Shown here in pieces: positions 141 to 20,000 of a stretch of 20,000 bases of DNA. Positions within the stretch are counted from its first letter, which is position 1. The number at the start of each line of letters is the position of its first letter. The stretch is taken from the NCBI GenBank assembly GCA_016218805.1, contig JACRCW010000159.1:51634-71633 (forward strand). The letters run 5' to 3'. The translations under genes and the position numbers were made by a program. This DNA is from Deltaproteobacteria bacterium. GTDB taxonomy: Bacteria; Myxococcota; JACRCW01. The notes beneath the pieces are model-generated. The model made no database searches and was not told where the DNA came from. It saw only the letters and a list, made by a program, of their open reading frames with translations.

Positions 141-836
141 TCACGGCCCCGCGGCCGCCTCCAGCCGGCGCCCCAGCGCGCGCGCCAGCGCGGGTGCCAG
201 CGTGTCCATCACGGCGTCCATGGGGGGTGTGCGCGCGCCCAGGCGTGCCTGCAGGCTGGTGACGCCGCGGTGCTGCAGCCCGCACGGCACCACCAGCGAA
301 AACACCGACAGGTCCGTGGTGACGTTGAACGCCAGCCCATGGCTCGTGACAAACCGCGTCCCCTTCACGCCCACCGCGCAGATCTTCTCCATGCGGCCGC
401 CGGGCGCGGGCGGGTCCAGGAACACGCCGCTCTCACCGGGGATGCGCTGTCCCGCCAGGCCCAGCCCCGCCATGACGTCCAGGACGGCCTGCTCCAGCGC
501 GCGCACGTAACGGGGGAGGTCGCGTTCCTCGCCCTCCAGCTTCACAATGGGATAGGCCACCAGCTGCCCCGGCGCGTGCACGGTGACGTCGCCACCGCGG
601 TCCACTTCAACCAGGTCAATCCCGCGTGCGGCCAGCAGCGCGTCGGTAGCCAGCACGTTGGTGCGGCCCCAGCGGCGCGTGATGGTGATGACGGCGGGGT
701 GTTCCAGCAACAACAGCGTGTCGGGAATGACGTCGTCCTGGCGCTGGTCGCGCAGCTGCTTCTGCAGGTCAAAGGCGTCCCGGTACGGCACGGTCCCCAG
801 CTTCCGCAGCCGGAGCACGGGTGCGGGGTCAGACAT
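141..836 (-). CDS. lipB: Lipoyl(octanoyl) transferase LipB (231 aa)
   Basis: Motifs LLLLEHPAVIT, DRGGDVTVHAPGQLVAYPI, KICAVGV, TSHGLAFNV, VVPCGL. ATG at 836 overlaps the ileS stop (ATGTCTGA). Confidence 0.95.
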   Translation of the reverse strand: MSDPAPVLRLRKLGTVPYRDAFDLQKQLRDQRQDDVIPDTLLLLEHPAVITITRRWGRTNVLATDALLAARGIDLVEVDRGGDVTVHAPGQLVAYPIVKLEGEERDLPRYVRALEQAVLDVMAGLGLAGQRIPGESGVFLDPPAPGGRMEKICAVGVKGTRFVTSHGLAFNVTTDLSVFSLVVPCGLQHRGVTSLQARLGARTPPMDAVMDTLAPALARALGRRLEAAAGP

Positions 837-3741
837 GCTCCACCACGTCCACGCAGCGTGCGCACAGCAGCGGGTGCTGCGCGTGTGTGCCCACCGACGG
901 GGAGTGCAGCCAACAGCGCGTGCACCGTGCGCCCGCGGCCGGCTCCACGCGGATGCGAAGGCCCTGCACGGTGGCAGCGTCCTGGAACGTGTCATCCCGG
1001 ACCTGCTCCAGCAGCTCCACCTGGCTGGCCAGCAGCAGGCCGGGCAGCTCGTCACTCAGGCCGTTGAGGAAGTCCCGCAGCTCAAACGGGCAGCTCAACA
1101 GCACCGCGGCCTCCGCGCTGTGGTGTCCTTGGGCGCGGAACGCTTCCAGCGCCTTCTGCACGTCCTGCCGCACGCGCAACACGCGCTCAAACGTCGACAG
1201 CACCGTGGCGCGGTCCGCGCGGTCGTACCCGTCGGCCGGCGCGGGCAGCTCCGCCAGATGCACGGAGCCGGCGCGCTTGGGGTCGGGCGGCAGCGCGTCC
1301 CAGGCCTCTTCGCAGGTGAACGGCAGGATGGGCGCCGCCAGCGCACACAGCCCACGCGTGATGAGGTACAGCGCCGTCTGCGCCGAACGCCGGCGCGCGC
1401 TGGTGGTGGCGTCGCAGTACAGCGTGTCCTTCTGCACGTCCAGATAGAACGACGACAGGTCCCCGGAGATGAACTCGTTCACCGCGTGGATGACCTGGTG
1501 GAACTCGTAGGCCTCGTACGCGGCGCGCACGCGCACCACCAGGTCCGTGAAGCGCGCCAGGATGTAGCGGTCCAGCGGCGGCAGTCCCTCCCGCGGCACC
1601 AGGTCCCGCGCCGGATCAAAGTCCGATGGATGCACGTTCCCCAGCATGAACCGCAGCGTGTTGCGGAACTTGCGGTAGCCCTCGGACAGGCGCGCCAGGA
1701 TGGTGCGGCTGATGCGGATGTCTCCCGTGTAGTCCGTGGCTGCCACCCACAGGCGCAACAGTTCCGCCCCGTGTTCCGCAATCACCTCGTCAGGCGGGAT
1801 GTAGTTGGCGGAGCTCTTGGAATACTTGTGTCCCTTCCCGTCCACCACAAACCCGTGCGTGAGCACCGTGCGGTACGGCACCAGGTGACGCGCGCCCACG
1901 GCAATGAGCAGCGTGGAGTGGAACCAGCCGCGGTGCTGGTCGCTCCCCTCCAGGTACAGGTCCGCGGGCAGCGAGACGTGCCGCCAACGGCCGGACCCGC
2001 ACACAGCGGCGTAGGACGCGCCGGATTCAAACCACACGTCCAGGATGTCCTGCTCCGGGCGGAAGCTGGTGCCGCCGCAGCCGCTGCAGGTCATCCCCGC
2101 CGGGTGCAGCTCGGCGGGCGCGCGCGTCCACCACGCGTCGGCGCCTTCGCGTTCAAACAACGCAGCCACGTGTTCCATCACCTCACGCGTGGCCGTGGAG
2201 CGGCCGCAGCCCGTGCAGTGGAACGCCGGGATGGGGACGCCCCACACGCGCTGGCGGCTGATGCACCAGTCCGGCCGCGCCTGCAGCATCCCGCGGATGC
2301 GCTGGATGCCCCATGACGGGACCCAGCTCACCCCGGGCAGCGCGTCCAGCGCGGCCTGCCGCAATCCGGACGCTTCCATGGAGATGAACCACTGCTCCGT
2401 CGCGCGGAAGATGACCGGGTTCTTGCAGCGCCAGCAGTGCGGGTAGTCGTGCTCCACGCGCGCATCCGGACTGCCCAGCAGCATCCCGCGCTCCGCCAGC
2501 AGGCGCATCACCGCGGCGTTGCCGGATGGCCGGCCGCCACGGGACTGCACCACGTGCAGACCGGTCAGCGCCGGCTCCCGCGCCGCAGCGGTGAACAACC
2601 CATCCGCATCCACCGGCGTGGCAATCTCCAGGCCCACCTGCCGCCCCAGCACAAAATCCTCCGGCCCGTGCCCCGGCGCCGTGTGCACCAGCCCCGTGCC
2701 CTGGTCCGCTTTCACGCCCTCTGAGCGGATGAACGGGACGCGCAGCCCGGGCAGGAACGGGTGATCCGCGCCCAGCGTGTTGCGCCCATCCGGCGAGCAC
2801 ACCGCCCCCAGTTCCACCGGAATCCCGTCAACAAGCTGCGCGCCCGTGGCGGCCTCCACCGCCGCGCGCATCCGCTCCGCCACGATGTAGCGGCCCGCCC
2901 GCCCGTCCACGCGCCACGCGCGGTAGCCGAACGTGTCATCCCCGACGGCAATGGCGCGGTTGGCCGGCAGCGTCCAGGGCGTGGTGGTCCAGACCAGCGC
3001 GCTCACCCGTTCGGTGGCCAGCGCGGGGTTGAGCGCCACGCGCGTGGCGTCATCCGTGACGGGGAAGGCCACAAACGCGGACGGCGAGTGCAGCACCTGG
3101 TGCTCCACCTCCGCCTCCGCCAGCGCCGTGCGGCAGCTCCAGCACCAGTGCACCGGCTTGGTGCCCTTGTAGAGCGTGCGCCCGTCGGCAAACCGCGCCA
3201 GTTCGCGGATCACGGAGGCTTCGTAGGTGGGATCCAGTGTGCGGTACGGCGCGTCCCACTGCGCAAACACGCCCAGGCGGCGGAACTGCTCGCGCTGCAC
3301 GCCCATCCACTTCTCCGCCTCCTGGCGGCACCGTGCGCGCACCTCCAGGCGCGGGAGCGTGGCCTTCTCATCAGGCGAAAGCGCACGGTCCACGTTGAGC
3401 TCAATGGGAAGGCCGTGGCAGTCCCAGCCGGGGACCAGGTTGCACAGCCACCCGGTCATGTTCCGGTACTTGGCCACAATGTCCTTCAACGTCTTGTTGA
3501 GGATGTGGCCGTGGTGGATGTTGCCGTTGGCGTAGGGCGGCCCGTCGTGGAGGACAAACAGCTTCCCCGCCCGGTTCTTCTCCAGCACGCGCGCGTACAG
3601 GTCCGTGCGCTCCCAGTGCGCCAGCAGCCGCGGCTCCAATTGCGGGAGGTTGGCCTTCATGGGGAAGTCCGTGCGCGGCAGCCGCACCGTGTCACGGTAT
3701 CCGCCCGCGGCCACCGCGGGTGCCTGTGCGTCCGTAGTCAC
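829..3741 (-). CDS. ileS: Isoleucine--tRNA ligase, type 1 (C-terminal zinc finger), ~970 aa
   Basis: LPRTDFPMKANL, LHDGPPYANGNIHHGH, PGWDCHGLPIE, WTTTPWTLP, GTGLVHTAPGHG, DWCISRQRVWG, YLEGSDQHRGWF, KYSKS, CTRCW...LCARC. GTG at 3741 has GGAGG 5 nt upstream, so it is preferred over the TTG at 3789. Confidence 0.97.
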   Translation of the reverse strand: MTTDAQAPAVAAGGYRDTVRLPRTDFPMKANLPQLEPRLLAHWERTDLYARVLEKNRAGKLFVLHDGPPYANGNIHHGHILNKTLKDIVAKYRNMTGWLCNLVPGWDCHGLPIELNVDRALSPDEKATLPRLEVRARCRQEAEKWMGVQREQFRRLGVFAQWDAPYRTLDPTYEASVIRELARFADGRTLYKGTKPVHWCWSCRTALAEAEVEHQVLHSPSAFVAFPVTDDATRVALNPALATERVSALVWTTTPWTLPANRAIAVGDDTFGYRAWRVDGRAGRYIVAERMRAAVEAATGAQLVDGIPVELGAVCSPDGRNTLGADHPFLPGLRVPFIRSEGVKADQGTGLVHTAPGHGPEDFVLGRQVGLEIATPVDADGLFTAAAREPALTGLHVVQSRGGRPSGNAAVMRLLAERGMLLGSPDARVEHDYPHCWRCKNPVIFRATEQWFISMEASGLRQAALDALPGVSWVPSWGIQRIRGMLQARPDWCISRQRVWGVPIPAFHCTGCGRSTATREVMEHVAALFEREGADAWWTRAPAELHPAGMTCSGCGGTSFRPEQDILDVWFESGASYAAVCGSGRWRHVSLPADLYLEGSDQHRGWFHSTLLIAVGARHLVPYRTVLTHGFVVDGKGHKYSKSSANYIPPDEVIAEHGAELLRLWVAATDYTGDIRISRTILARLSEGYRKFRNTLRFMLGNVHPSDFDPARDLVPREGLPPLDRYILARFTDLVVRVRAAYEAYEFHQVIHAVNEFISGDLSSFYLDVQKDTLYCDATTSARRRSAQTALYLITRGLCALAAPILPFTCEEAWDALPPDPKRAGSVHLAELPAPADGYDRADRATVLSTFERVLRVRQDVQKALEAFRAQGHHSAEAAVLLSCPFELRDFLNGLSDELPGLLLASQVELLEQVRDDTFQDAATVQGLRIRVEPAAGARCTRCWLHSPSVGTHAQHPLLCARCVDVVEHV

Positions 3742-4036
3742 GGAGACCTCCCGCGCGGCGCCGTAGCGGGGCGCGTTCGTCGGGGTCAAGGCCGGGCGGG
3801 GCTCTGGCGCGCGGGCCGCGCGGGCTATCTTGTGCGGATGCGCACTGCGTCACTGTTCCCGCTGCTGCTTTGCACCGTCACGGCGCGCGCGGACTTCCGC
3901 GACGACCCGGAGCGCGCCCCTCGCGTGAAGGCCGCACGGCAGCGCGCCACCGACGTCATCCAGGGCCACTACCGGGCCGCCGGCGTGGCCTACCCCGGCC
4001 GCGTGCACCTGCGCGCGTTCAAGGGTGAAGGCGTGG
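3671..4036. repeat. Direct repeat A, copy 1 (ileS 5' end + divergent intergenic region + 5' end of L,D-transpeptidase gene)
   Basis: Aligns by eye with 4865-5229, with about 11 substitutions and one 1-bp indel over 366 bp. Confidence 0.97.
3742..3837. promoter_or_regulatory. Divergent promoter region (also duplicated at 4935-5030)
   Basis: Minus strand: TTGACC (3789-3784), N18, TACGGC, then the GGAGG RBS of ileS. Plus strand: TATCTT (3826-3831) lies 6 nt before ATG 3838, a leaderless-type layout. Confidence 0.5.
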
Positions 4037-4065
4037 CGACCGTGATCATCGGCCCGGGTGGGTGA
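3838..4065 (+). pseudogene. Truncated 5' duplicate of the L,D-transpeptidase-family gene (66 codons plus a foreign tail)
   Basis: MRTASLFPLLLC...LRAFKGEGV matches the start of 5031-5762, then diverges at 4037 (ATVIIGPGG*). The catalytic HxxxxxxGC region is absent. Confidence 0.9.
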
Positions 4066-4077
4066 GAAGGACCAGTG

Positions 4078-4630
4078 CTATGGGGTCGCGCGTAGGTCGG
4101 TGTACTCGGGGTGATGCTCCAACGCGGTCGTGGCTTGAGCGATCCACGTGGGAAGTGCGCCGTAGACCTTGCGCAACTGGCCGTCCTGGGTGCGCGCACA
4201 CAAGCGCGCGTCCGTGCCATCCACCGAGTTGTCGTAGATGTAGACGCGGTTGGCATGCCGCCGGCAAGTTGGCGAGTGACCGGGTCCAACGGGTGACGAT
4301 CTTGTCGATGGGCACCGTGTGCCCGCCCTCGATGACGCGTGCCGTCACGCGCGCGGCGTTGATGGTGGGGTCGGACGTTCCGATGAAGAACACGCGGACG
4401 AAGTAGCCCGCAGCGCGGCACGCCTCGACGAACGCGACCTTGTCGCGGGTCGAGAACACGGTTCAAACGCCAGGCTCGCACCCGCGGCGCGCAGTTCTTC
4501 GCGCCGGGCGGTGGTCCACTGCGCAGCGCGCATCACCGCCTCCGGCGAGTTCCAGTCTCCGAAGCGGTCACGGGACCGTTGTCTTGCCCGCGCCGTTGGG
4601 CCCTGCCACCACCGGCAGGACGGGGCTCAT
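4078..4630 (-). pseudogene. Zeta-toxin-like / AAA P-loop ATPase (COG4185-like), disrupted
   Basis: Reconstructs across frame breaks near 4573, 4461 and 4255: MSPVLPVVAGPNGAGKTTV / RDRFGDWNSPEAV...SLAFE / VFSTRDK...RVFFIGTSDPTINAARVTARVIEGGHTVPIDKIVTRW / NRVYIYDNSVDG...RATP*. The ATG overlaps the upstream stop (ATGA). Confidence 0.85.
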
Positions 4631-4824
4631 GCGCGGCGGTCACCCAGAGGGGAGGGCGCGTCCACCGCGTTCGCGTCGGCAAGGCGGCGGACCTCCGCGT
4701 ACAGCCGTTGCAGGGCGGCCTGGTGGCGCGCAGTGACGTCGGCAAAGGCTTCGTGTGACAACTCCACGAGTTCCTCGTCCGTTGGCTCGTAAGCGGGGTC
4801 GGCGAAATTCGTCTTGCGCGACAT
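4627..4824 (-). CDS. Small protein (65 aa) with acidic N-terminal half, putative antitoxin/partner of the zeta-like ATPase
   Basis: MSRKTNFADPAYEPTDEELVELSHEAFADVTARHQAALQRLYAEVRRLA... Translationally coupled to the ATPase. TACGAT (4836-4831) lies 6 nt before the ATG. Confidence 0.65.
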   Translation of the reverse strand: MSRKTNFADPAYEPTDEELVELSHEAFADVTARHQAALQRLYAEVRRLADANAVDAPSPLGDRRA

Positions 4825-4864
4825 GGCGCCATCGTAGTGCGCCGCCCGTCGTGGCACCAGCCCG

Positions 4865-4934
4865 GTGCGCGGCACCGCACGGCGTCCCGGTATCCGCCCG
4901 CGGGCGCCGCGGGTGCCTGTGCCTCCGTAGTCAC
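4865..4934 (-). pseudogene. ileS: Truncated duplicate of the ileS 5' end
   Basis: GTG 4934 with GGAGG. VTTEAQAPAAPAGGYRDAVR versus VTTDAQAPAVAAGGYRDTVR in the intact gene; 1-bp deletion near 4875; homology ends at 4865. Confidence 0.9.
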
Positions 4935-5229
4935 GGAGACCTCCCGCGCGGCGCCGTAGCGGGGCGCGTTCGTCGGGGTCAAGGCCGGGCGGGGCTCTGG
5001 CGCGCGGGCCGCGCGGGCTATCTTGTGTGGATGCGCGCCGCGTCACTGTTCCCGCTGCTGCTTTGCACCGTCACGGCGCGCGCGGACTTCCGCGACGACC
5101 AGGAGCGCGCCCCCCGCGTGAAGGCCGCACGGCAGCGCGCCACCGACGTCATCCAGGGCCACTACCGGGCCGCCGGCGTGGCCTACCCCGGCCGCGTGCA
5201 CCTGCGCGCGTTCAAGGGTGAAGGCGTGG
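4865..5229. repeat. Direct repeat A, copy 2
   Basis: Matches 3671-4036. Contains a dead ileS start and the live start of the transpeptidase gene. Confidence 0.97.
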
Positions 5230-5762
5230 TGGAACTGTGGGCCGGACCCGACGGCCAGGAACTCAAGCGCGTGCGGTCTTTTGCGGTGTGCGCGCGCAGC
5301 GGCGGCCTGGGGCCCAAGCGCAAGGAGGGGGACGGCCAGGTACCGGAGGGGTTCTACCAAGTGGACCGGTTCAACCCATACTCCAACTTCCACCTCTCGC
5401 TCGGCGTGAGCTACCCCAACGCGGCGGACCGCGTGCGCAACAAGGGCAACCGCCTGGGCGGGGACATCTTTGTGCACGGCAACTGCGTGACCATTGGGTG
5501 CCTGCCGCTGCGGGACGGGCCCATTGAGGAACTCTACGTGGCGGTGCTGGACGCGCGGCTGGGCGGGCAGAAGTCCATCCCCGTGCACATCTTCCCGCAC
5601 CGCATGGATGATGAGGGCATGAAGTGGCTGCGCGCGTTGGGCCCGGATGACGCGTTGTGGGCGTTCTGGGAGGAACTGCGGCCCGGGTATGATGCGTTCG
5701 AACGGACGCACCGCGTGCCGCGCGTCGTCGTGGACCGGGCGGGACACTACGTCGTGAGATAG
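5031..5762 (+). CDS. YkuD-fold L,D-transpeptidase-family protein, YafK/DpaA-like, with signal peptide (243 aa)
   Basis: LRAFKGEGVVELW, SGGLGPKRKEGDGQVPEGFY, NPYSNFHLSLGVSYPN, GGDIFVHGNCVTIGC, VHIFP, FWEELRPGYDAFE. N-terminal signal peptide ending ARA. Confidence 0.9.
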   Translation: MRAASLFPLLLCTVTARADFRDDQERAPRVKAARQRATDVIQGHYRAAGVAYPGRVHLRAFKGEGVVELWAGPDGQELKRVRSFAVCARSGGLGPKRKEGDGQVPEGFYQVDRFNPYSNFHLSLGVSYPNAADRVRNKGNRLGGDIFVHGNCVTIGCLPLRDGPIEELYVAVLDARLGGQKSIPVHIFPHRMDDEGMKWLRALGPDDALWAFWEELRPGYDAFERTHRVPRVVVDRAGHYVVR

Positions 5763-5773
5763 CCGCTGTCGTC

Positions 5774-5817
5774 GAGGGTGACCGCGGGGCGTGGCTCGGC
5801 AGGAGCCTCGCCCTCCC
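5774..5817. repeat. REP-like palindrome between convergent genes; may also act as a terminator
   Basis: Stem GGGCG-T-GGCTC / GAGCC-T-CGCCC. The minus strand reads GGGAGGGCGAGGCTCCTGCCGAGCC (GGAG head followed by a palindrome), with a degenerate partner GAGGGTGA at 5774. Confidence 0.55.
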
Positions 5818-5827
5818 AGGCACACCA

Positions 5828-6682
5828 CTACTTCTCGGGCGGGTACTCGTAGAAGCCCGCGCCCGTCTTCCGGCCCAGCTTCCCCGCACGCACCAGGCGG
5901 CGGAGGATCTGCGGCGGACGGAACTGCTCGCCCACCTCGCGCCACAGGTGGTCCGCAATGGCCAGCCGCACGTCCAGCCCCACAAGGTCCGTCAGCTTCA
6001 GCGGCCCCATGGGGTGCCGGTACCCAAGCTCCATCGCGCGGTCTATGTCCTCCGGCGACGCCACACCCTCCTCCACCATGCGCATGGCCTCCAACCCCAG
6101 GATGATCCCCAGCCGCGAGCTGGCGAACCCCGGGCTGTCCCGCACCACAATGGCCTCCTTGCCCAACCGCTTCACCAAATCCTTCGCCGCCGCCACCGTG
6201 GCGTCGTCGGTGCGTTCGCCGCGAACCACTTCCACCAGCTGCATCACCGGCACCGGGTTGAAGAAGTGCATGCCCACGCAGCGGCCCGGCTTCTGCAACG
6301 CGCTCCCCACCTGCGTGATGGACAGACTGGAGGTGTTCGTCGCCAGGATTGCGCGCTCGCTGATCACCTTCTCCGCCGCCGCGAACAACCGCTGCTTGGC
6401 GCCCATGTCCTCGACGATCGCCTCCACCACCAGGTCCGCGCCTTCGCATGCGGCACGCACGTCAGTCGTCGTACGGAAGCGGCCGCGCGCGGCTTCCAGG
6501 TCTGCCGCGGACAGCTTGCCCTTCTCCGCCGCCTTGGCCAGGCCGCCCAGCACCTTCTGCTTGCCGCTCTCCAGCCGGCCTGCGTCCTCTTCCATGCCGC
6601 TGACGGTGAAGCCCGCCTGCAGCAGCACCTGCGCAATGCCGCTTCCCATGGTTCCCAGTCCCATCACCGCTGCGCGTTCCAT
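5828..6682 (-). CDS. 3-hydroxybutyryl-CoA / 3-hydroxyacyl-CoA dehydrogenase (284 aa)
   Basis: Rossmann VMGLGTMGSGIAQ, LVVEAIVE, LATNTSSLSIT, GMHFFNPVPVMQLVEV, DSPGF, HPMGPLKLTDLVGLDV, GKLGRKTGAGFYEY. GGAGG 5 nt before ATG 6682. Confidence 0.95.
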   Translation of the reverse strand: MERAAVMGLGTMGSGIAQVLLQAGFTVSGMEEDAGRLESGKQKVLGGLAKAAEKGKLSAADLEAARGRFRTTTDVRAACEGADLVVEAIVEDMGAKQRLFAAAEKVISERAILATNTSSLSITQVGSALQKPGRCVGMHFFNPVPVMQLVEVVRGERTDDATVAAAKDLVKRLGKEAIVVRDSPGFASSRLGIILGLEAMRMVEEGVASPEDIDRAMELGYRHPMGPLKLTDLVGLDVRLAIADHLWREVGEQFRPPQILRRLVRAGKLGRKTGAGFYEYPPEK

Positions 6683-6683
6683 T

Positions 6684-6761
6684 TCTGCCTCCGCCGTCAT
6701 TGTGGCGGGCGCGGTGTGACGCCGTGGCGTGGCCGCGTCAAGGCCCGGTGATGCCGCGCGC
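6684..6761. repeat. Direct repeat B, copy 1 (RBS and upstream region of the dehydrogenase)
   Basis: 73 of 78 positions identical to 8339-8416 by eye. Confidence 0.95.
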
Positions 6762-6926
6762 CACCCGCTGGGCAAATTGGGGCGGGGACCTTCCGGGTCA
6801 CCTCCATGACGACACGCGCAGCACGCGAAGGCCCAACGACACCCAGCGACGACGAGACGGACGACCCACGTGCGCCTTGCCGGAGGGAGTGCGGCGGCGC
6901 AGGATTGCGGGGGGGGATAGCCCTGC

Positions 6927-8330
6927 ATGGACACGACAGCGATTCCAGGACGACGGATGGGCCCACTTTCCGGTGCTGAAGGAGCGCGTGGTCAACCGGG
7001 CACCCGGGTGGGCGGCCTGCCACGCCAACGAGCACGCCTGGTCACGTGCATCACCGCTGCGCTGTGTTGCATGGGGGAGGACTGTGGCGACGAAGGGGTC
7101 ACCAACACGGTGATACACGGTGATGGGACGATCGAGCGCTCGGTGGTGCAACGGCGGGTTGCGTTTCCCGTAGACCCCGCGTCCGCGGGTTGGCAGCAGA
7201 TTCGGAACAATGCGACTCCCGCGGACGCTGAGGCGAGTTGGCGGTCCCCGCAGAAGCCTCTTCAGGAAACGAATCTATTTGGCGTCCGGGGGCGCTTCTC
7301 CCGCGCCGAAGACATTCCGGCGCACACGCGACTCGCGAACGGGAGTGCGTATCCTGTTCGACGGAAGTACCAGCGGCGGGCGTTGGTGTTTGCATGGGAA
7401 CACTCGTGGACAGAGACCTTTCCCCAGACGCGTCGCCTGTCGGCAGCCTTGGAGGCTGCGGAAATCATGTACGACGACCGCGTGTGGGAGAATGAAGTAC
7501 TTTTCGATGAGGTGTACGGGCGCGTTTGTGATGCATCTCCCTTCTATCGGTGGGCTCGCACCGAAGGGCGCACGTGGGTGCTTGAGTTGACAACCGCGCT
7601 CCTTGTCGCGGACTTTGACCCGCTTTCCGAAGCGTTTCTCGACGAGTACTTGGCCATTGCGCGGAAGCACGGGTTTGACCCCAGTGCGCAAGGTCCGTTC
7701 AAAGACGCATGGTGGCACCCCGTTTCCCGTTTCGCCCGGACCAGGTTTCTCGCGCTGGCCCGCCCGCGCGGAGACGCCGGACCCGTGTCAGAGGAGATGG
7801 CCTCGCTGGCAGTGGGGGAAGCGGAGGAACCGGACGGTGGGCCGATTGCGGACGCGAGGAAACGTGTCACGGCACGATTCGGCTCACCTCTTGGCTCCAT
7901 TCGAGAGGAACCCTGGGCGCGACTCACTGGAGATCTCGCCTCTTCTCCGTCGACAACGGACACGCTCACCATGCCGGGAATTGTCGTTGAATCAACCGGT
8001 GAGCAGATTGCGCCCAATCGGGTTCGCTGGCGAAGCGGGCGCAAGGAAGCGTGGAGCGCGCGCGGGCTGACCCTGGCCGCGACCTCCCTTGAACCCTCCG
8101 TCTCCGCACAGCGTGCCATGGGCGTGAAGATCACCACGCACGAAGACCTGGTGCGATGGCGCGACCTCTACAATGCGCTCGGGGAAGAAGACGCCGCACG
8201 CGTCGTGCAATCGGTGAAGCAACGTTCGCGCAGACCGTTGCTGGAGTGGTGGCGGTCTCCTGCTTGCGCGCGTGTGCCAGAAGTGGGTGCGGTCCTGGGC
8301 TTCCTGAAGTGGAAGCCTGGCCCCAGGTAG
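6927..8330 (+). CDS. Hypothetical exported protein, possibly a lipoprotein (up to 467 aa; true start may be downstream)
   Basis: Long ORF filling the interval between the B repeats. RQRAR-LVTCITAALCCMGEDC resembles a signal peptide. Many A/T-ending codons compared with neighbours. Possible promoter TTGCCG-N17-CAGGAT at 6877-6905. Confidence 0.7.
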   Translation: MDTTAIPGRRMGPLSGAEGARGQPGTRVGGLPRQRARLVTCITAALCCMGEDCGDEGVTNTVIHGDGTIERSVVQRRVAFPVDPASAGWQQIRNNATPADAEASWRSPQKPLQETNLFGVRGRFSRAEDIPAHTRLANGSAYPVRRKYQRRALVFAWEHSWTETFPQTRRLSAALEAAEIMYDDRVWENEVLFDEVYGRVCDASPFYRWARTEGRTWVLELTTALLVADFDPLSEAFLDEYLAIARKHGFDPSAQGPFKDAWWHPVSRFARTRFLALARPRGDAGPVSEEMASLAVGEAEEPDGGPIADARKRVTARFGSPLGSIREEPWARLTGDLASSPSTTDTLTMPGIVVESTGEQIAPNRVRWRSGRKEAWSARGLTLAATSLEPSVSAQRAMGVKITTHEDLVRWRDLYNALGEEDAARVVQSVKQRSRRPLLEWWRSPACARVPEVGAVLGFLKWKPGPR

Positions 8331-8338
8331 CAGAGCTG

Positions 8339-8416
8339 TCTGCCTCCGCCGTGGTTCTGGCGGGCGCGGTGTGACGCCGTGGCGTGGCCGCGTCAACGCC
8401 CGTTGATGCCGCGCGC
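8339..8416. repeat. Direct repeat B, copy 2
   Basis: Matches 6684-6761. Begins 8 nt after the stop of the 467-aa ORF. Confidence 0.95.
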
Positions 8417-8894
8417 GGCCAGGCGTTCCGTCATCTCAGCGAGGTACCGGCCTTGGGGCCGGAATCGCACAGATTGCACAGCTCAGCCATCCGGAGCGCA
8501 CGTTGGACGTCGTAGCAGTGGGGCAATGCGGCGGCCGCTACCAGGTGTTTCCGTCGACATACCCATCCAGCCGCAGGGTGAGAAGCCACCGCGCACCATC
8601 TTGTCGACGGATCTCGCCATTCCATCTTCTATCCAGCCGGTGCGCTTGCCGTGGCAGTGGTGGCGGCCGTAGCACGACGTTGACACCCACCACCCAAGGA
8701 GACGCCAGGGCGACCCGTTCGGGCTGTCAAGTTCAACCTCGCCACCGCCATTGCGGCGCTGCCGGATGAAGCGCGTCTCAAGGACCCCGGCCTCCGGGCA
8801 GACATCTACCGCGGTGAGGCGAGCGCCAGCGCCCTCAACGCCAAGGCGCAGCGCAGCAAGTTCCTCCCGTGCCGGGGTTCTCCGTCAGCCACGT

Positions 8895-9062
8895 GCGGAA
8901 CAGCCGCCCCTCCTGGTCAACCAGCGTGAAGACCGGCATGAACGCCACCGCGATGACCAGTGGCGAGAAGAACACGCCGGGCCCCACCTCCAGCAGTGCC
9001 TCCAGTCTCACGTCGTGGAAATCACCCATACGGCCCCCGGCAATCCAATGGTGGCAGCGGTT
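8895..9062 (-). pseudogene. Internal fragment of a CusA/CzcA heavy-metal RND efflux permease
   Basis: HHWIAGGRMGDFHDVRLEALLEVGPGVFFSPLVIAVAFMPVFTLVDQEGRLFR resembles the CusA TM5-6 signature (EVGPxxFFSLLVIxxxFxPxFxLxxQEGRLF). Only ~55 codons of a protein normally >1000 aa. Confidence 0.8.
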
Positions 9063-9065
9063 CAC

Positions 9066-9490
9066 CGGCTCCGGCGCGCTGTGGAAGCTGTGGGGCAACG
9101 AGGTCCTGGTGGCCCCGCTCATCGTCCCCAAGGTGTGCCCCACCGGCCTGGTGCGTGACGCCAACGGCGACCTCGTGCGTGCGTGGCGCTGAGGCTGGAC
9201 TCGTGGGACTGGTTTGCCGCGGAACGCCAGGACATCCTCACGCGCTTGTGGCAGGGCAACGTCCGCAACCTGCTGGTGCTCACCGGTGACCTGCGTTCCA
9301 CCATCATGGCGTCCGCCTATTGACCCCGAGCTCGCCTGGACAGTGAACGCTGGGGTCACGGCGTGCTCGCAGCGGCGCCACGTGTGAGGTGGTGCAAGTG
9401 GACAAGAGCCTGGACGCAGACCCCGCCGAAGTGCTGGTGGTGCGGCAGGTGGCGGTGGACGCGGGCAGCACCGTGGTGCGCAACCTCTGA
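9066..9490 (+). pseudogene. C-terminal fragment of a PhoD-type alkaline phosphatase, multiply frameshifted
   Basis: Across frames: SGALWKLWGNEVLVAP; LDSWDWFAAERQDILTRLWQGNVRNLLVLTGDLRS (compare PhoD DxWDGY.xER...NxVVLTGDxH); GHGVL; VAVDAGSTVVRNL* with stop at 9488-9490. Confidence 0.75.
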
Positions 9491-9604
9491 TTGTCCCTGG
9501 GCCACCTCAGAACGCGCACGGGATGACCCGCATCACGCCGGGCCCGTCCACGCTCGTGATAGCGTCTGCGCCCCCGGATCCCCCGGTCCTACTGGGAGAC
9601 GCTG

Positions 9605-12600
9605 ATGGCCCTCCTGCGCGCGCTTGTCATTCCCCGCCCTGTTCTTGCGTTCCCCTCCGCCCTGTTCTGCGCTTGCCTATCCACGCTGGCGTGCCACAAC
9701 GCGGCCACGTCCTCCACCGTGACTCCGGCTCCCGCGCCCGCTGCCGCTCCGGCGGAACTTCCCGACGTGATGCGCCGCGCGCACTTCGCCTTCCATCCGG
9801 TTGGCGTGGCGGATTGGTCAGGCGGAGGCACGCACTACCAGGTGGACGTCCACCAGGGCGGTATCCGGTTCACGCCCGGGGTGTCGGAGGGCGGAGGTTC
9901 CTTCACCGCGGGACCGCCGCTGGAGCTGGAGACCCGGGGCGTGCGTCGCGGAGCGCGCGAGCGCCTGCTGGACGTGCCCGCGGCGCGCGGTGACGGCGAA
10001 GGCAGCCTGCGGATCTCCCGCGACGACGCCGAGGAGGTGCTGCAGAACACCGCGGACGGGCTGTGGCAGCGCTGGGAATGGACCACGGAGCCCGACGGCG
10101 ACGGTGACCTGGAGGTCACGGTGGCGGCCAGCGGGTTGCCATATGCCGGCACATCCGACGAGGCGGTTCACTTCCGCGACCCGGGGTCGCCGGTGGGCGT
10201 GCGCTACTCGCATGCGACGTGGATTGACGCCGACGGGAACCGGACCCGCATTGAGGCCCGCTGGGATCACGGACACATTGCCCTGGTGGTTCCCGCGGCG
10301 GTGTTGTCCGCATCCGCGTATCCGGCGGTGCTGGACCCGGTGGTGGGCCCGGAGGTGGCCGCGGACGCGGGTGCGGTGGTCGTCAGTGCGTCCGGCACGG
10401 CCGTCAGCGGGCCCCTGCTCGCGTACGGCGCTTCCACCTACCTGGCCATCTGGAACGACTCCCGGTTCGGCTACACCACGACGATGGGGGCGCGCTTCAA
10501 CGCCGCCGGCACGGCGTTGGATCCCACCGGTTTTGTCATTGGGCGGTTGGCGGAAACACTGGCGTTTGACGGGACCAACTTCCAGGTTGCGTACGCGGAC
10601 TACAATACCGGTCTGTACGGGTACCGGATCACCCCGGCCGGCGTCATCGACGGCAGCGTGTACACCCTCAATACCGCGCTTTACATGCAATACCCGCGCA
10701 TGGCGTGCCAGGCGGCAACGCAGTGCCTGGTGGTCTACCGGAAGCTCAACACGGGCAACTTCCGGTACGAAACCTGGGGCCATCGCATCAATCTGAATGC
10801 CACGCCGCTGGGCAGCGCGTTCGCCATCTATGTGTTGAACAGCACCAATTCTCACGACGTCGCCTTTGATGGCACCAATTACGGGATTGCCATTGAGCGG
10901 CAATACGCGTCCGGCGGTATTGTCCTTGGGCAGCGTGTCTCTACCGCGGGCACGCTGGTGGGTACGGAAGTCAACATCTCCACCGTGACGCCCACGGTGG
11001 CCCAGGCGTCTGTGCCCCGGATTGCGTACGGGGGAGGGAAGTACCTGGTGGCGTGGCAGGACAACCGCGCCGGCAGTGCCAGCGGGCCGTTTGACATCTA
11101 CGGCGCGTTCTACGGCACCGACGGGACCGTGGGCGCCAACGTCCAGCTCGGCAACGCCGCGGGCGGCGAACAGGTCACGCCGGTGGTGTCCGGTGACGCG
11201 GCCAACTTCTTGGTGGCGTGGAACCACCTCCGGCCGGACGGGAAGAACGAGGTCTGGGCCAACCGCCGCCGCGTATCCGATGGCGCGCTGCTGGACGGGA
11301 CGGGCGTGCTGCTGGTGGGCGCCGCGGGTGCGGATAACTCGGTTTCGGCGACTGTCTATGACAGCACCGGACACGCGCTGGGATTCCGTGCCACGCCGGC
11401 GTTGTCCACCAACCAGGACAACTACCTGGCCCGCTACAACACGGGCGGCGCGGCCCTGGCGCTGCGGGACGCTGCGCCCCTGCTGATGACGACGTCCGGC
11501 AACCGGCAGGTGGTGCCGGATGTGGCGTATGACTCGGTCAACGCGTTGTATCTGGCGGTGTGGCAGGACACGCGGCTGGGAGCCTCCAATCTGTACGGGG
11601 CACGCTTTGACAGCGGCGGTGCGTTGCTGGACGCCGCGGCGTTCCTCATTGCGCAGGGCGCCGGTTCCCGGGACAAGCCGCGCCTGGCGTTTGACGCCGC
11701 CAGCGGACGGTTCCTGGTGGTGTGGGAGGACAACCGCAACGGCGCCTGGGACATCTACGGGGGCCGCCTCACGTCGCCTGCCAGCCCCACGCTTCCAACG
11801 CTGGTGGACACCAGCGCGGGGTTCCTGGTCTCCAGCAACGGCGCCGGCGTGCCCGCCGCCAACAACCAGATCACGCCGGACCTGGTGCTGGCGCCCTCCA
11901 CCGGCCGGATGCTGGTGGTCTGGAGCGATGGACGCACCGGGTCGGACATCTACGGTACCCGGGTGGACATGACCGCGGCCTCGCCCGTGGTGGACCTCAC
12001 CGGCAAGGTCCTGGTTGACACGGCGGCGGTGTCCCTGATCCTGCCCCGCATTGCGCACGAAGGCCCCAACTCGCTGCTGGTATGGGTGGATTATTGGGGT
12101 GATAAGATCGACGCGGCGCGTTTTGACGCCAGCCTCACCAAGATCGCCGCTTCGGACCTCACGGTGGACACAGTGGTTCGCAGCTACACGCGTCCGTCCG
12201 TGTCGTTCGGCGGGGGCGCCTATATCGTGGCGTGGGAGAACTCCAGCTTGCGCATCAACGCGGCGCGCATCACCGCGGCCGGCGTGCTCTCCGGCGTGCA
12301 ACGGGACGTCTGGTACAGCGGCGTGGTCAGCCCGACCTCACCGGACGTTTCATTTGATGGCACCTACCACGTGGTCCTGTTTGAATACGCGGCTTCCACT
12401 ACCAGTTCACGTGACGTGCTTGCGGGACGCGTCCGCGCCACCGGCTCCATCAAGGACAGCACACCCCTGTCCATTGCGGCTGGCGCGGGCATTGACGAGG
12501 GTTTCCCCGCCGTCGGTTCCACCAACACCAACACGCGCCGGTCGCTCGTCGTGTATTCCCGGTATGACAGCAGCGCCGCCGTGCGCGCGCTGCGGGCGCA

Positions 12601-15600
12601 GGCCCGGACGTTCCTCTCCAACGACCGACCCGCCGCCGCAACACCGCAGGCATTCTCCGTCAACGAGGACGCCGCCGGCAGCTTCACCGTGGTGTGCACC
12701 GATGGCGACAGCGACCCACTCACGTGGGCCAAGCTGACGGATCCCACCAACGCTTCGGTGTTCACGTGGACCGGGCCCGGCTTCAACTACACGGGCAACG
12801 CCAACTACTTTGGCACTGACACGTTCACGGTGCGCTGCAGCGACGCGTTTGAAAGCGCGCCGACCACCACCGTGAACCTCACCATCAACTCCGTCAACGA
12901 CGCGCCGTCCTTCACCAAGGGCGCGGACCAGGTGATCAACGAGGACGCGGGCGCGCAGACGGTGGCGAATTGGGCCACCGCGATCAGCGTGGGCCCGGCC
13001 AACGAGTCAGCGCAGACCCTCTCCTTCACCGTCACCAACACCAACACCGCGCTGTTCTCAGTGCAGCCGGCGGTGAGCGCCGCCGGGACCCTCACGTACA
13101 CCGCCGTGGCCAACGCCTATGGCATGGCCACGGTGAGCGTGCGCGCAGTGGACACCGGCGGCACCGCCAATGGCGGCCAGAACCAGTCACCCATCCAGAC
13201 GTTCACCATCACGGTGAATCAGGTCAATGACGTGCCCTCCTTCACCAGGGGCGCAGACCAGGTGGTGAACGAGGACGCCGGCGCGTTGACCGTCGTCGGT
13301 TGGGCCACCGCCCTCAGCCCTGGTCCTGCCAATGAGAGCGGGCAAACCCTCACATTCACTGTGTCCAATGACAACAACGGGCTGTTTGCCGTGCAGCCGG
13401 TCATCAGTTCTGCCGGCGTGCTGTTGTACACGCCGCTGGCCAACGCCAACGGAACCGCGGTGGTCACCGTCACCCTGTCCGACAACGGCGGCGTGGCCAA
13501 CGGGGGTGTGGATACCTCGGCAGCGCAGACGTTCAACATCACGGTGAGCGCCGTCAATGACGCGCCGTCCTTCCTCAAGGGCGCCAACCAGGCGGTGACG
13601 GAGGACAGTGGCACCACCACCGTTGCCAACTGGGCCACTGCGCGCTCCGCCGGGCCCGCCAATGAAAGCGGTCAGACGCTGACGTTCATCCTGGCCAATG
13701 ACAACAATGCGCTGTTTTCCGTGCAGCCCGCCGTCAGCCCGGCGGGTACCCTCACATTCACGCCGGCGGCCAACGCCAGCGGCACGGCCAACCTCACCGT
13801 GTACGTCCAGGACAACGGCGGCGTTGCCAACGGTGGCGTGGATGTTTCGCCCACGCAGTCCTTCACCGTGGCGGTGTCCGCGCTGAATGACGCGCCCGTG
13901 ATCACCACGCCGGCGGGAGCCCAGACAGTGAACGAGGACACCGCGCTCATCTTCAGCGGCGCACGCCTGGTGTCCGTTGCCGACGTGGACGTGGCATCCG
14001 GCAGTCTGCAGGTCACGCTCATTGCCACCAACGGCACGGCGTCATTGTCCGGCATTGTTGGACTTGTCTTTTCTACCGGTACCGGCACCAATGACGCCAC
14101 CATGACGTTCACCGGCGCCCTGGCCGACGTGAACACCGCGCTCAACGGCATGGCGTTCACGGGCACACCGCTCCACTACAACGGCGCCGCACAACTGGAC
14201 CTCACCGTGGATGACCAGGGGAACACGCCCGCGCCCGCGCAACAGGGCACCGCGTCCATCCCCGTCTCCACCAACGCCGTGAATGACGCGCCGGTGAACA
14301 ACGTCCCCGCCGCGGGGCAAAGCACGCCCCAGAACACGGACCTGGTGTTCAATACGGCCAACGGCAACCGCATCTACGTCCAGGACGTGGACCACGGCGG
14401 GCTGACCGAACAGGTCCACCTCACCGTCCTCTACGGCTACCTCACGCTGGCCTCCACCACCGGCATCAACTTTGACACCGGCGTGGACGGGTCCGCGGAC
14501 CTGACCATCAGCGGGACGGTCAACAACCTCAACGCCGCGCTCAACGGGATGCGCTATTCGCCCAACACCGGCTACACCGGGCCGGACACGCTCACCGTGG
14601 ACACCAGTGACCTGGGCCGCACGGGCTCCGGCGGCGTCAGGACGGACCTGGACACCGTGGGCATCACCGTGTTGGCGCCCAACCTCCCGCCGGTGAACAC
14701 GGTTCCCGCGGCGCAGTCCACCAACGAGGACACCAGCCTCGCTTTCTCCACCGCCGGCGGAAACCGCATTGCGCTCAGTGACCCGGATGCCGCGTCCGCC
14801 ACCGTGGAACTCGCGCTGACCGCAACCAACGGCGTCCTCAAGCTGTTCACGACGACGGGAATCACGTTCCAGTCCGGCGCGGATGACACCGCGGCCATGA
14901 CGCTGCGCGGGACGCTCCTTGCACTCAACGCCGCGCTGGACGGGATGCTGTTCAAGCCCACCGCGCAGTTTTCTGGTGGCGCCAGCGTCTCACTGGTCAC
15001 GGATGATCTCGGGAACACCGGGACCGGCGGCGCCAAACAGGACAGCGACACGGTGACCATCACCGTGAACGCGGTGAATGACGCGCCCATCATTTCCGAC
15101 ATTGCGGACCAGTCCACCAACGAGGACACGGCCACCGGCGCCCTGGCGTTCACCGTGACGGATCTTGACACCGCGCTCGCCAGCGTCACCGCCACGGGTA
15201 CGTCCTCCAACACCACGCTGGTGCCCAACGGGAGCATCGTGTTCGGCGGCGGCAGCGGGGCCAACCGCAACGTCACCGTCACGCCCGCACCCGGTGAAGC
15301 GGGCTCCACCACCCTCACCGTGACCCTTTCGGACGGCGCCGGCGGCACGGCGAGTGACACGTTTGTCCTCACCGTGAACGCGGTGAATGACGCACCGACG
15401 ATCTCCGACATTCCCGACCAGTCCACCAACGAGGACACCGCGAGCAGCGCCATCGCGTTCACCGTGGGTGACGCGGACACCGCGCTCACCAGCGTCACCG
15501 CGACCGGGACGTCTTCCAACACGGCGCTGGTGCCCAACGGCAACATCATGTTCGGCGGCGGCAGTGGCGCGGCGCGGACGGTGACCCTCACGCCGGTGGC

Positions 15601-18600
15601 CAACCAGTCCGGCACCACCACCCTCACCATCACCCTTGCGGACGGCGCCGGTGGCACGGCCAGTGACACGTTTGTCCTCACCGTGAACGCGGTGAATGAC
15701 GCGCCCACCATTTCAGACATTGCGGATCAGTCCACCAATGAGGACACGGCCACGGCCGCCCTTGCGTTCAATGTGACGGATCTTGACACCGCGCTCACCA
15801 GCGTCACGGCCACCGGCAGCTCGTCAGACCCGGCGCTGGTGCCCAATGGCAGCATCGTGTTTGGCGGCGGCACGGGCGCGGCGCGGACGGTGACGGTGAC
15901 CCCGGCGGCGGGACAGTCCGGAACGGTCACCATCACGGTGACACTGGCGGACGGCGCCGGCGGCACTGCGTCAGACGCATTCCAATTGACGGTGAACGCG
16001 GTGAATGACCCACCCACCATCTCCAACATCCTGGATCAATCCACCAACGAGGACGTACCCACCGCGGCCATTGGTTTCACCATTGCGGATCCAGACCACG
16101 CGGCCGGCGTGCTGGTGCCCACCGCCACGTCCTCCAACCCCACGCTGCTGCCGGATTCGCGCATCACGTTGGGCGGTACGGACGGCAACCGCACCATCAC
16201 GCTGGCGCCCGCAGCGGACCAATCCGGCACCTCCACCATCACGGTGACCATCTCAGACGGTGTGGGCGGGACCGTCCAGGACAACTTTGTGCTCACCGTG
16301 AACGCCGTGAATGACGCCCCCGTCATCAGCGCCATCACGGACACCTCCGTTGACGAAGACCTCAGCACCGGTGCCATCGCGTTCACGCTGGCCGACGTTG
16401 ACAACGCGGTGTCTGGCCTGACCCTCGCCGCGGCATCGGACAACCCGACGCTGTTGCCGGCGGGGAGCATGGTGCTAGGCGGGAGCGGGAGCGCGCGCAC
16501 GGTCACGGTCACCCCGGCGGCCAACATGTCCGGGACTGCCGTGGTCACCCTCACCGTTTCCGACGGAAGCGGCGGCTCCGCAGTGGAGTCCTTCACGCTG
16601 GTGGTGAACGCCGTGAACGACGCGCCTGTGATCAGCGCCATTGGAGATGTGGGAATCCAGGAGGACACGCCCAGCGTTCCCACCGCGTTCACACTGAATG
16701 ATGCGGAGACCCCCGCGGCCAACCTCGTGCTGACGGTGGCTTCGTCAGACCTGGGGGTGGTGCCGGTGGCCGGTGTGGTGATCTCGGGCACCGGGGGGTC
16801 GCGCATGGTGGAGGTGACCCCCGCGACCAACGCGTCCGGTACGTCCACTGTCACCGTGACCGTGACGGACGGCGCCGGCGCTTCGTCGTCGGAGAGCTTC
16901 CTGGTCACGGTCAACGCCGTGGATGACACGCCGGTGATCTCCGCCATCAGTGACCAGGGCATTGCGTTGAATACCAGCACCGGCGCACTGTCCTTCACGG
17001 TGGGCGATGTGGAGACCCCGGCGGCGAGCCTGCAGTTGTCCGCGAGTTCCTCCAACACAGCGCTGATTCCGGTATCTGCCGTGGTGTTCGGCGGCGGCGG
17101 TTCCGCGCGCACGGTCACCGTCACGCCGACGGCCGGTCAGACCGGCAGTGCCACCGTTACCATCACCGTGTCGGACGGCGCGCTCACCGCGTCGGAGGTG
17201 TTCGTCGTGTCGGTCAGCGCCAACGTCCCGCCGACAATCTCCGACGTGGTTGACCAGTCCACGACGGAGGACGCCGCGCCGTTGACGGTGTCTTTCACGG
17301 TGGGTGACGCGGAGACGCCCGTTGACAGCCTCACCATGGAAGCGGTGTCATCCGATCCGGCGCTGATTCCCGTGGAAAACATCACCTTTGGTGGCAGCGG
17401 TTCCGCGCGCTCAGTCACCCTGGCTCCGCTGGCCAACGCGAATGGCACGGCGACCATCACCTTGACGGTGCGCGACGACGACGGCGGTACGGGGAATGAC
17501 TCGTTCATCCTCACCGTGAGCGCGCTGAACGATGCGCCCACCGTGTCCACCATTCCGGCCACCGTGACCAACGAGGACAGCCCCACTGCGCCGCTTGCCT
17601 TCACCGTGGGTGACGTTGAAACCACGGCGGGGAGCCTGCTGGTGACCGCCACGTCGTCGGACCAGGCGCTGCTGCCGGACGGAAACATCACGCTCAGCGG
17701 CAGCGGGTCCAACCGCACGGTGACGCTGGCCCCGGCCCCCAACCGCTCCGGCACCTGCACGGTGACCCTGGTTGTTTCTGACGGCAACCAGACGACGGCG
17801 ACCACGTTCACGTTCACCGTCAACGCGCTGGCGGACGCACCCACCGTGGGCGCGCTGGCAGACCGGACCACCGACGAGGATGCGGCACCGCTTCAGGTGG
17901 ACCTTGCCGTGGGTGACGCTGAAACGCCGGCAGGCAGCCTGGTGGTCACGGTGACCTCGTCAAACGGGGCGGTCGTGGCGCCCGCGGGCATCACGCTGGG
18001 CGGGTCCGGCGCGGCGCGCACGGTCACCCTGGCCACGCTGGCGGACGCCAACGGGACCACCACCATCACGGTCACCGTGTCAGACGGAACGTTGTCCACC
18101 AGCGAGGAGTTTGTGCTCACGGTCAACGCGGTGAATGACCCGCCGGTGGCGCAGGCGCAGTCCGTTGCCACCACGCGGGACACCGGTGTGGCGGTGGCCC
18201 TGGTGGCAACCGACGTGGATGGGGACCCGCTGACGTATTCCATTCCCACCCCCCCGGTGAACGGCACGCTGTCCGGAGCCGCGCCCAACCTGGCCTATCA
18301 GCCCAACGCGGGTTTTGTGGGCGCGGATTCACTCCAATTCTCCGTGACGGATTCCGGCGGCCTGACCAGCACCGCCGCCGTGTCCATCACGGTGCGGGCG
18401 ACCAACACGCGGCCGGTGGCAACACCGCAGGTGGCCGGTGTGACGGAAGACGTGGCGGCCGCCATCCTGTTGACGGGCAGTGACCCGGACGGGGACACGC
18501 TGGTGTATTCCGTCGTTGTCAATCCGCGGCACGGCACGCTCACCGGGACGCCACCAGACCTGCAGTACCTGCCGGAAGCGGATTACAGCGGGCTGGATGA

Positions 18601-19816: not shown

Positions 19817-19876
19817 GACGACGCGCTCAGCGCAGCGGCAGCAAGGAATCGGAAAATATCAAGTCGGACGATATTT

Positions 19877-19960
19877 GTAGCGGCGGCACCCGTGGCCGCC
19901 GCGGAGAGCCGCGCGGTCTACATCGTCACTCCCTGCGGCGAGTGCATGCCTCGCCGCTAC
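19877..19960. repeat. Inverted pair of GTAG-headed REP-like palindromes (REPIN-like)
   Basis: Plus strand 19877-19902: GTAGCGGCGGCACCCGTGGCCGCCGC. Minus strand 19960-19935: GTAGCGGCGAGGCATGCACTCGCCGC. Both are 26 nt with an 8-bp stem and 7-nt loop. Confidence 0.75.
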
Positions 19961-20000
19961 GAAGTCTGTCGACATGATCGGGTTGTTCATTTCCAAATCC

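Follow-up and report, generated by a model that had tools for sequence, protein, structure and literature searches.

Insertions with long target duplication in a myxobacterial genome and their oriented association with remnants of IS91/ISCR-family elements

How two blocks of genes came to lie between long direct copies of chromosomal DNA, with the genes on either side left intact, is the question raised by a 20,000-nucleotide (nt) stretch from a Deltaproteobacteria bacterium (Myxococcota, JACRCW01; assembly GCA_016218805.1, contig JACRCW010000159.1, positions 51,634 to 71,633). This stretch, termed the window herein, is the final 20 kb of contig C132, up to the contig end, in an assembly (G000) of 6.43 Mb with 170 contigs and a G+C content of 70.2%. 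The nearest comparison genome, G001, belongs to another genus; G002, G023, and G069 are further genomes. We denote the duplicated host segment as A and A′, the cargo as X, and the left and right flanks as L and R; R1 and R2 are the first and second repeat of the window. Both are insertions with long target duplication (ILTD), in which L-A-X-A′-R arose from L-A-R, and a part of the ILTD of this genome is associated, in a preferred orientation, with remnants of insertion sequences (IS) of the IS91/ISCR (IS common region) family.

R1 (3671-4036 and 4865-5229; 366 aligned bp, 96.7% identity, 828 bp between the copies) occurs twice in the genome and consists of the 5′-terminal 71 bp of ileS, the divergent intergenic promoter region, and 66 codons (199 bp) of a YkuD-family gene. 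Copy 1 serves the intact ileS (829-3741, minus strand; Pfam tRNA-synt_1, E value 1e-123; start by codon model) and also contains a truncated copy of the YkuD gene start (3838-4065, plus strand; from alignment and codon model) that reads into cargo 1. Copy 2 combines a dead ileS start with the working start of the intact YkuD-family gene (LdtF/DpaA-like; 5031-5762, plus strand; PF03734; NF040599 with an E value of 4e-42, below the cut-off). R2 (6684-6761 and 8339-8416; 78 bp, 93.6% identity, 1,577 bp between the copies) comprises the leader of an intact 3-hydroxyacyl-CoA dehydrogenase gene (5828-6682, minus strand; PF02737/PF00725) and the final 8 codons of a desaturase-family gene, of which contig C91 has an intact version; copy 1 holds the dehydrogenase leader and a nonfunctional desaturase 3′ end. 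The third genomic copy of R2, on C91, is explained by a nested third event (see below). Alignment thus upholds what a preliminary description of this DNA had reported, namely, direct repeats of ∼365 and 78 bp, intervals of 828 and 1,577 bp, and intact resident genes. Its view of the repeats as copied promoter and ribosome-binding regions was not confirmed, R1 being a divergent promoter region plus gene parts and R2 a leader plus the desaturase 3′ end, and the cargo looks foreign in the case of cargo 2 (64.8% G+C with atypical codons) but hardly in that of cargo 1 (68.5%, versus 70.2% for the genome).

A chimera assembled from co-occurring strains might mimic such structures: the assembly is fragmented into its 170 contigs, the four read sets available all come from one study, and no contig listed covers the whole stretch. 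That the junctions be spanned by reads was the check proposed at the outset, and independently assembled contigs from these four runs bridge three of the four repeat/cargo junctions at core depth without mismatch in the pieces shown (X2 3990-4640, X4 4812-5029, X1 6712-8123, and X2 6543-6996); the junction between cargo 2 and R2 copy 2 is not among the read-contig pieces listed. The two cargos have read depths of 25.7 and 24.7, equal to the single-copy depth of 25 to 27, and the shared repeat is deeper (39.9). Since the junctions are bridged in independent assemblies and the cargo depth equals the core depth, in read support that comes from one study and carries no long-range phase, a chimera is unlikely; with copies that differ by 3 to 6% and the same structures present in G001, we consider it extremely improbable.

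A genome-wide search of G000 for low-copy, nonparalogous pairs (≥40 bp, ≥85% identity, 250 to 15,000 bp apart, ≤3 copies, and not both inside genes) retained 36 of 98 pairs. All 36 are direct and none is inverted, in agreement with the recurrent gene gain, leaving both flanking genes intact, that had been proposed from the window alone. The suggestion that gene starts are targeted did not hold up when enrichment was checked genome-wide, as the pairs touch only 5′ gene ends in 5 cases, only 3′ ends in 11, both in 8, and neither in 12. In fixed 20-kb tiles, 26 pairs were found in 5.99 Mb of G000, 3 in 0.78 Mb (782 kb) of G001, and none in 0.40 Mb of G002; the latter two genomes, rather than 21 outside genomes, supplied the background rate. 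The set of 36 is mixed, with one attachment (att) site at a tRNA-Thr gene, a pair on C134 that is probably a contig-end overlap, a few pairs that resemble paralogues, and those on C136 and C160, which resemble tandem duplications with internal deletions. Neither terminal inverted repeats, whose absence had been noted before for the window, nor a common end motif was found in any of the 29 cargos tested, and the 36 units share no core in an all-against-all comparison, in which R1 and R2, too, are unrelated to each other, as first described. The nine PF00589 hits all lie outside the 36 cargos, which also yielded no integrase remnant in a search that did not extend to serine integrases. Of the transposase families PF01609, PF03050, PF00665, and PF02371, none was found, in an assembly from which multicopy elements may be missing; ISAzo13 and Y1 gave only three and two hits, respectively. 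Toxin-antitoxin-type or nuclease families (UPF0175 twice, DUF433/DUF5615, BrnT, HicB, Uma2, and AAA_21 with DUF4276) occur in 7 of the 20 regions scanned.

No mobility gene had been visible in the preliminary description, a point that did not hold. An eroded IS91/ISCR-family element, consisting of the trailer that follows the transposase gene and the origin end (oriIS), lies at 6820-7021 (plus strand), with its 5′ side facing R2 copy 1. It matches DNA downstream of the IS91-family transposase genes of G000 (69% over ∼200 bp, E value 5e-23; profile E value 5e-17), and its oriIS end scores 58, compared with a maximum of 33 among 3,000 control 40-mers; its last bases are degenerate. The Y2 (HUH) transposase gene itself is absent from the window; on C14, C89, and C129, fragments of it immediately precede the homologous trailer, and copies of the remnant family elsewhere in G000 likewise run upstream into transposase C-terminal coding sequence, whose identity to an IS91-family protein of G001 reaches 82%. 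In both genomes, the elements end in CTACCC followed by GT, ∼210 bp past the transposase stop codon, where oriIS is canonically located; the bases after CTACCC in the G000 family copies are GTTC, GTTT, GTTT, GTGT, and GTTT. A conserved block at the 5′ end of the element (the terminator, or terIS, side) is common to three other copies and does not define the cut site. Arrays of the order element-cargo-element are found on C14 and C89, and remnants in G000 can be as short as 40 to 80 bp. IS91-family remnants are present in 8 of the 36 same-contig pairs, R2 included, and in both cross-contig pairs. From an iterative soft-scoring remnant search, six round-0 hits were kept (that at C28:154546 has no protein-level support, and that on C133 weak support), and rounds 1 and 2, together with three weak round-0 hits (C91:16721, C80, and C92), were dropped because the search drifted into GC-rich noise.

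The remnants are enriched at the duplications, with a bias in orientation. Of an initial catalogue of 15 remnant loci, 8 fall within cargos, which make up 1.17% of the genome. In an oriented test, 9 of 20 remnant loci had, no more than 600 bp from the 5′ side of the remnant, a low-copy segment of host DNA that was repeated downstream in direct orientation, compared with 1 of 20 when the orientation was flipped and 5 of 356 random points in other atypical islands (Fisher P value of 8e-10). The nine cases include R2 and the nested third duplication but not R1. The gap between A and the remnant is 0 in five cases and ∼20, 60, 60, and 105 bp in the other four. The only flipped case (C78:13929-20254) has two interleaved duplications around one gene, with the IS91 5′ half reversed.

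The nested third duplication is a unit of 395 bp (94.7% identity) at 8058-8451, the other copy of which is at C91:783-1176; both copies are present in the reads at similar depth. On C91, an IS91-family transposase remnant adjoins the unit, the intact desaturase gene comes after the unit, and the orphaned 3′ end of this gene remains in the window at 8393-8451 (minus strand). If C132 and C91 are neighbors, the remainder of the window (8452-20000), which contains a repeat element, efflux-gene fragments, and the gene for a 3,403-amino-acid immunoglobulin-like/cadherin protein, is probably the cargo of this event.

The same pattern was encountered in the second genus. A random sample of G001 contained, on C95, a 905-bp duplication (99.3% identity) whose first bases are precisely the IS91-type tetranucleotide GTTC; a transposase remnant lies inside, and copy 2 is followed by another oriIS end. 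From its translation, we take the duplicated segment to be the end of proA and rsfS. Of eight further remnant clusters of G001 chosen beforehand, the two with room on both sides fit and six are cut by contig ends, which gives a total of three cases, and the remnants on C78 and C3 and a second one on C95 do not show the pattern.

What the inserts carry differs between the two sites. Cargo 1 (4037-4864, 828 bp, no further copy in the genome) contains a frameshifted pseudogene of a zeta-toxin-like/AAA_33 ATPase (4055-4630, minus strand), which has 299 homologues with PF06414/PF13671 and whose matches are split over frames, and a 65-codon gene (4627-4824, minus strand) that overlaps the ATPase start by 4 nt and had no hit in searches of the Pfam and NCBIfam families. 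Judging from this layout, the two are a putative toxin and a putative antitoxin, and cargo 1 would be a dead toxin-antitoxin pair. An intact distant paralogue of the ATPase (30% identity; C26:19248-20072, minus strand) is likewise preceded by a small gene. A 40-mer resembling oriIS ahead of the small gene of cargo 1 was rejected as a candidate, since 15.7% of 3,000 control 40-mers scored equally well or better. In G001, the ileS/YkuD site (locus L016, C476, 875-3730) holds three other genes, without a duplication, and a 249-bp palindrome at 3330-3575; in both genera, then, the ileS/YkuD border is a slot of variable content. Cargo 2 has one intact frame (7071-8330, plus strand; open from 6927, start uncertain), the product of which belongs to an unnamed family of 440 to 490 amino acids (127 representatives, ∼30% identity); it had no Pfam or NCBIfam hit, a word-index search returned no relative, and an atlas search gave only leads scoring below 0.9.

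The phenomenon had been thought undescribed, but it is a known one: an insertion with long target duplication was reportedly presented by Nobusato et al. in 2000. Furuta et al. (2010; PMC2853133) described ILTD for restriction-modification genes, with repeats that often span start or stop codons and a mechanism left open. The likeness is close: there as here, an insert of <20 kb lies between direct copies of >30 bp of otherwise unique host DNA, the cargo is of the addiction type, and the host gene stays whole although the duplication often spans its start or stop codon. The duplications of the window measure 366 and 78 bp, and the flanks are continuous, as the ileS, YkuD, dehydrogenase, and C91 desaturase frames cross the outer edges. 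The original definition further demands that no other mobile element be present in the insert, and whereas none was found for R1, R2 has a remnant of one; that paper gives no mechanism and mentions neither IS91 nor rolling-circle replication. Unlike ILTD as described, those found here have varied cargos, number in the dozens per genome, and in about a quarter of cases carry oriented IS91 remnants. In the open literature (subscription journals were outside the search), no paper linking ILTD with IS91 was found, and texts with both terms mention only IS911. The ILTD class itself is thus known, and the oriented IS91 footprint on it is a new, testable handle.

Other known systems share single features with these structures. 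The IS91 family (IS91, IS801, and IS1294) has the Y2 transposase of which remnants occur here (PF04986 and PF14319), lacks inverted repeats, and has its oriIS on the 3′ side of the gene, adjoining a GT-type tetranucleotide, as here (PMC13181058); its members overshoot the terminator in 1 to 14% of events (one-ended transposition) and form circles. The possibility, raised in the preliminary description, that the structures are remnants of larger known mobile elements is therefore partly borne out, but this class normally makes no target duplications (PMC13181058), so that it explains the structures only by an indirect route, and no intact element was found in our assembly. Such a route has been modeled for ISCR1 (Toleman et al., as reported in PMC7707992), with two overshoots, a circle, and one homologous crossover leading to the order repeat-element-gene-repeat. 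Complex class 1 integrons with ISCR1 (3′-CS-ISCR1-gene-partial 3′-CS, where 3′-CS is the 3′ conserved segment; PMC7707992, PMC3934969, and PMC9376610) have the same order and orientation and, as here, tandem element-cargo arrays. In contrast to their one fixed anchor (qacE/sul1) on plasmids and integrons, a different chromosomal border is used each time here, the elements are eroded, and intI1, attI, and a duplicated qacE/sul1 3′-CS are missing, the repeats being chromosomal gene borders; the structures work like a complex class 1 integron and are not one. Integrase islands (at tRNA sites; GIsul2/CR2-sul2) also have direct repeats that restore a gene end, often with IS91-like elements inside. 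IS1634 and IS1549 are insertion sequences with long, variable duplications. IS1630 is another (PMC2853133), and DDE elements of its type share this feature with our cases but not the absence of terminal inverted repeats; no DDE transposase was found in the cargos.

For the cases that carry a remnant (R2 and the nested event in the window), we lean, with moderate confidence, toward an IS91/ISCR-family rolling-circle element as the most likely cause, as proposed for ISCR1. With the end structure, the orientation bias, and the enrichment established, we infer the following route. An element would land beside host DNA A, replication from oriIS would overshoot the terminator and take A along, and the A-carrying unit would land beside a foreign gene X, where a second overshoot would yield a circle of the order A′-element-oriIS-X. 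One homologous crossover in A, with an empty-site chromosome, would then produce L-A-element-X-A′-R with both flanking genes whole, and later deletions would wear down the transposase together with the unused halves of A. Among the routes suggested at the outset, single-crossover integration of a chimeric circle would be the best fitting. ComEC is present in G000 and was counted in favor of this route.

Several observations weigh against it. Twenty-eight of the 36 same-contig pairs and R1 are without a remnant (none was found in cargo 1), Pfam and homology searches of G000 yielded no full-length transposase but remnants only, and 11 of the 20 remnant loci lack a 5′ duplication, only 4 or 5 of these being near contig ends. 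Two of the nine oriented cases assume contig adjacency (C132 with C91 and C89 with C17), and the C91 remnant family was discovered by looking beside a known duplication. The C91 junction has a microhomology of 9 of 10 bases and was therefore not made by a transposase. Distal junctions, inspected by eye, begin with GT in 3 of 11 oriented cases, which is about chance, and the inner edge of A is mostly inside a gene, so that either the gene was already broken in the donor or the edge was shortened afterwards; these two features and the microhomology make it necessary to assume subsequent deletions. Erosion of A with age was dropped as a candidate signal, since the length of A is not significantly correlated with identity (ρ = 0.43, P = 0.14, n = 13). 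The divergence between copies (pN/pS of 0.38, from 33 nonsynonymous and 31 synonymous changes) does not separate a donor allele from an in-place copy, nor does the mutation spectrum. Movement of the CR2 unit was shown to be due to an integrase rather than to rolling-circle replication (PMC9376610). Finally, none of 40 IS91 loci in the 21 more distant genomes is a clear case with a non-tRNA host repeat: 18 have element-derived repeats (ordinary ISCR-type arrays), in 3 the element sits 118 to 1,029 bp inside a tRNA att site and reads inwards, one has an unexplained 57-bp repeat and another a 71-bp repeat that was not inspected, and the profile did not re-find the gene in 2. The link between duplication and IS91 is thus established for a single family.

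Some of these points would be accounted for by one-step template switching or break repair, which we judge unlikely overall. A broken fork would switch by microhomology onto a preformed circle or single strand of the order element-oriIS-cargo that had entered the cell, in or just before the transposase gene, copy the cargo, and re-enter behind its exit point, so that A is copied twice and no donor with an element beside A is needed. Five junctions at which A runs straight into the interior of the transposase gene, at a different point each time, speak for this, as do the microhomology at C91, the lack of a GT signal at distal junctions, and the inner edges inside genes; a laboratory observation of IS481 at a duplication joint without its usual target repeat (PMC11708052) provides a parallel. 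However, random entry and exit predict both orientations, and the 5′ side of the element is at A in 9 cases versus 1; moreover, two cases keep the conserved element 5′ end 20 to 105 bp from A, and the G001 case begins at GTTC with a second oriIS end after copy 2. Alternatively, the pairs might be decayed islands made by integrases, with A and A′ derived from att sites, the integrase deleted, and IS91 elements as passengers that favor island ends. The tRNA-Thr pair, the three distant loci inside tRNA att sites, the integrase-driven movement of CR2-sul2 (PMC9376610), and a tRNA island on C85 with a 390-bp, 83% duplication that includes att and the 5′ end of the integrase gene (10818-11206 and 18887-19241; a relic of tandem integration) are in keeping with it. 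We consider this quite improbable, given that no PF00589 hit or integrase remnant was found in the cargos, that the 36 units share no core and 35 of them are not at tRNAs, and that units which reach across two gene ends and measure 180 to 900 bp are larger than att overlap regions.

R1 must be weighed separately. Here, ILTD independent of any element, by break repair that captures addiction modules or by tandem duplication followed by replacement, is moderately probable, and the 36 pairs would then be a mixture of routes. Cargo 1 is without a remnant, as are six of the seven regions with toxin-antitoxin-type or nuclease families; tandem duplications with internal deletions are suggested by C136 and C160; and double-strand-break repair has been hypothesized for restriction-modification genes (PMC2853133). 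On the other hand, a toxin-antitoxin-type cargo lies behind an IS91 remnant on C124, and because remnants range down to 40 to 80 bp, total loss of an element is plausible. The end structure of R1 fits the rolling-circle route, and an origin of R1 by it, with the element wholly lost, is possible but doubtful. Toxin-antitoxin cargo may explain why blocks that are easily looped out persist.

Other features of the window and of related loci were noted in passing. The 3,403-amino-acid protein (9605-19816, plus strand) has many Big_9/cadherin-like domains and a sorting-like C-terminal tail, presumably MYXO-CTERM, and may itself be the cargo of the nested duplication; a fragment of an AcrB/CzcA-type efflux gene at 8896-9190 is 82% identical to an intact gene on C43. 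A repeat family of ∼180 bp (8455-8640), of which there are 10 or more diverged copies, most of them located between convergent genes, resembles miniature inverted-repeat transposable elements or repetitive extragenic palindromic (REP) sequences, and a REP-like repeat of 28 to 45 bp at 5777-5821 has >35 copies in G000, where the Y1 transposase family has its two hits. No Rfam families and no sigma-70 promoters were found at 3000-9700. A tyrosine integrase gene lies next to the 5′ half of an IS91 transposase (C165:24215-25630; locus L022), and in G023, a single open frame of 853 amino acids holds both. In G069, a 3-kb tRNA-Asp island (L174, 3838-6955) with a perfect 43-bp att repeat contains a full IS91-family gene, and no integrase-sized frame was seen inside, where no family scan was made.

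ILTD have been without a mechanism since 2000, and capture by ISCR elements has been considered almost exclusively with resistance genes in view and at a single anchor sequence. Their oriented association, seen in two genera of an uncultured family of myxobacteria and at numerous chromosomal sites with no relation to each other, unites the two in a single testable hypothesis and offers a simple genomic signature to look for in other genomes. In its widest form, IS91-family elements would be a general, integrase-free acquisition route that turns any chromosomal gene border into a slot and then erodes, and most element-free ILTD, including R1 and those of other bacteria, would be their scars; we regard this generalization as rather unlikely. 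If the hypothesis that unites ILTD and ISCR capture holds, rolling-circle elements would be an undercounted route of environmental gene gain, the traces of which are missed by standard annotation.

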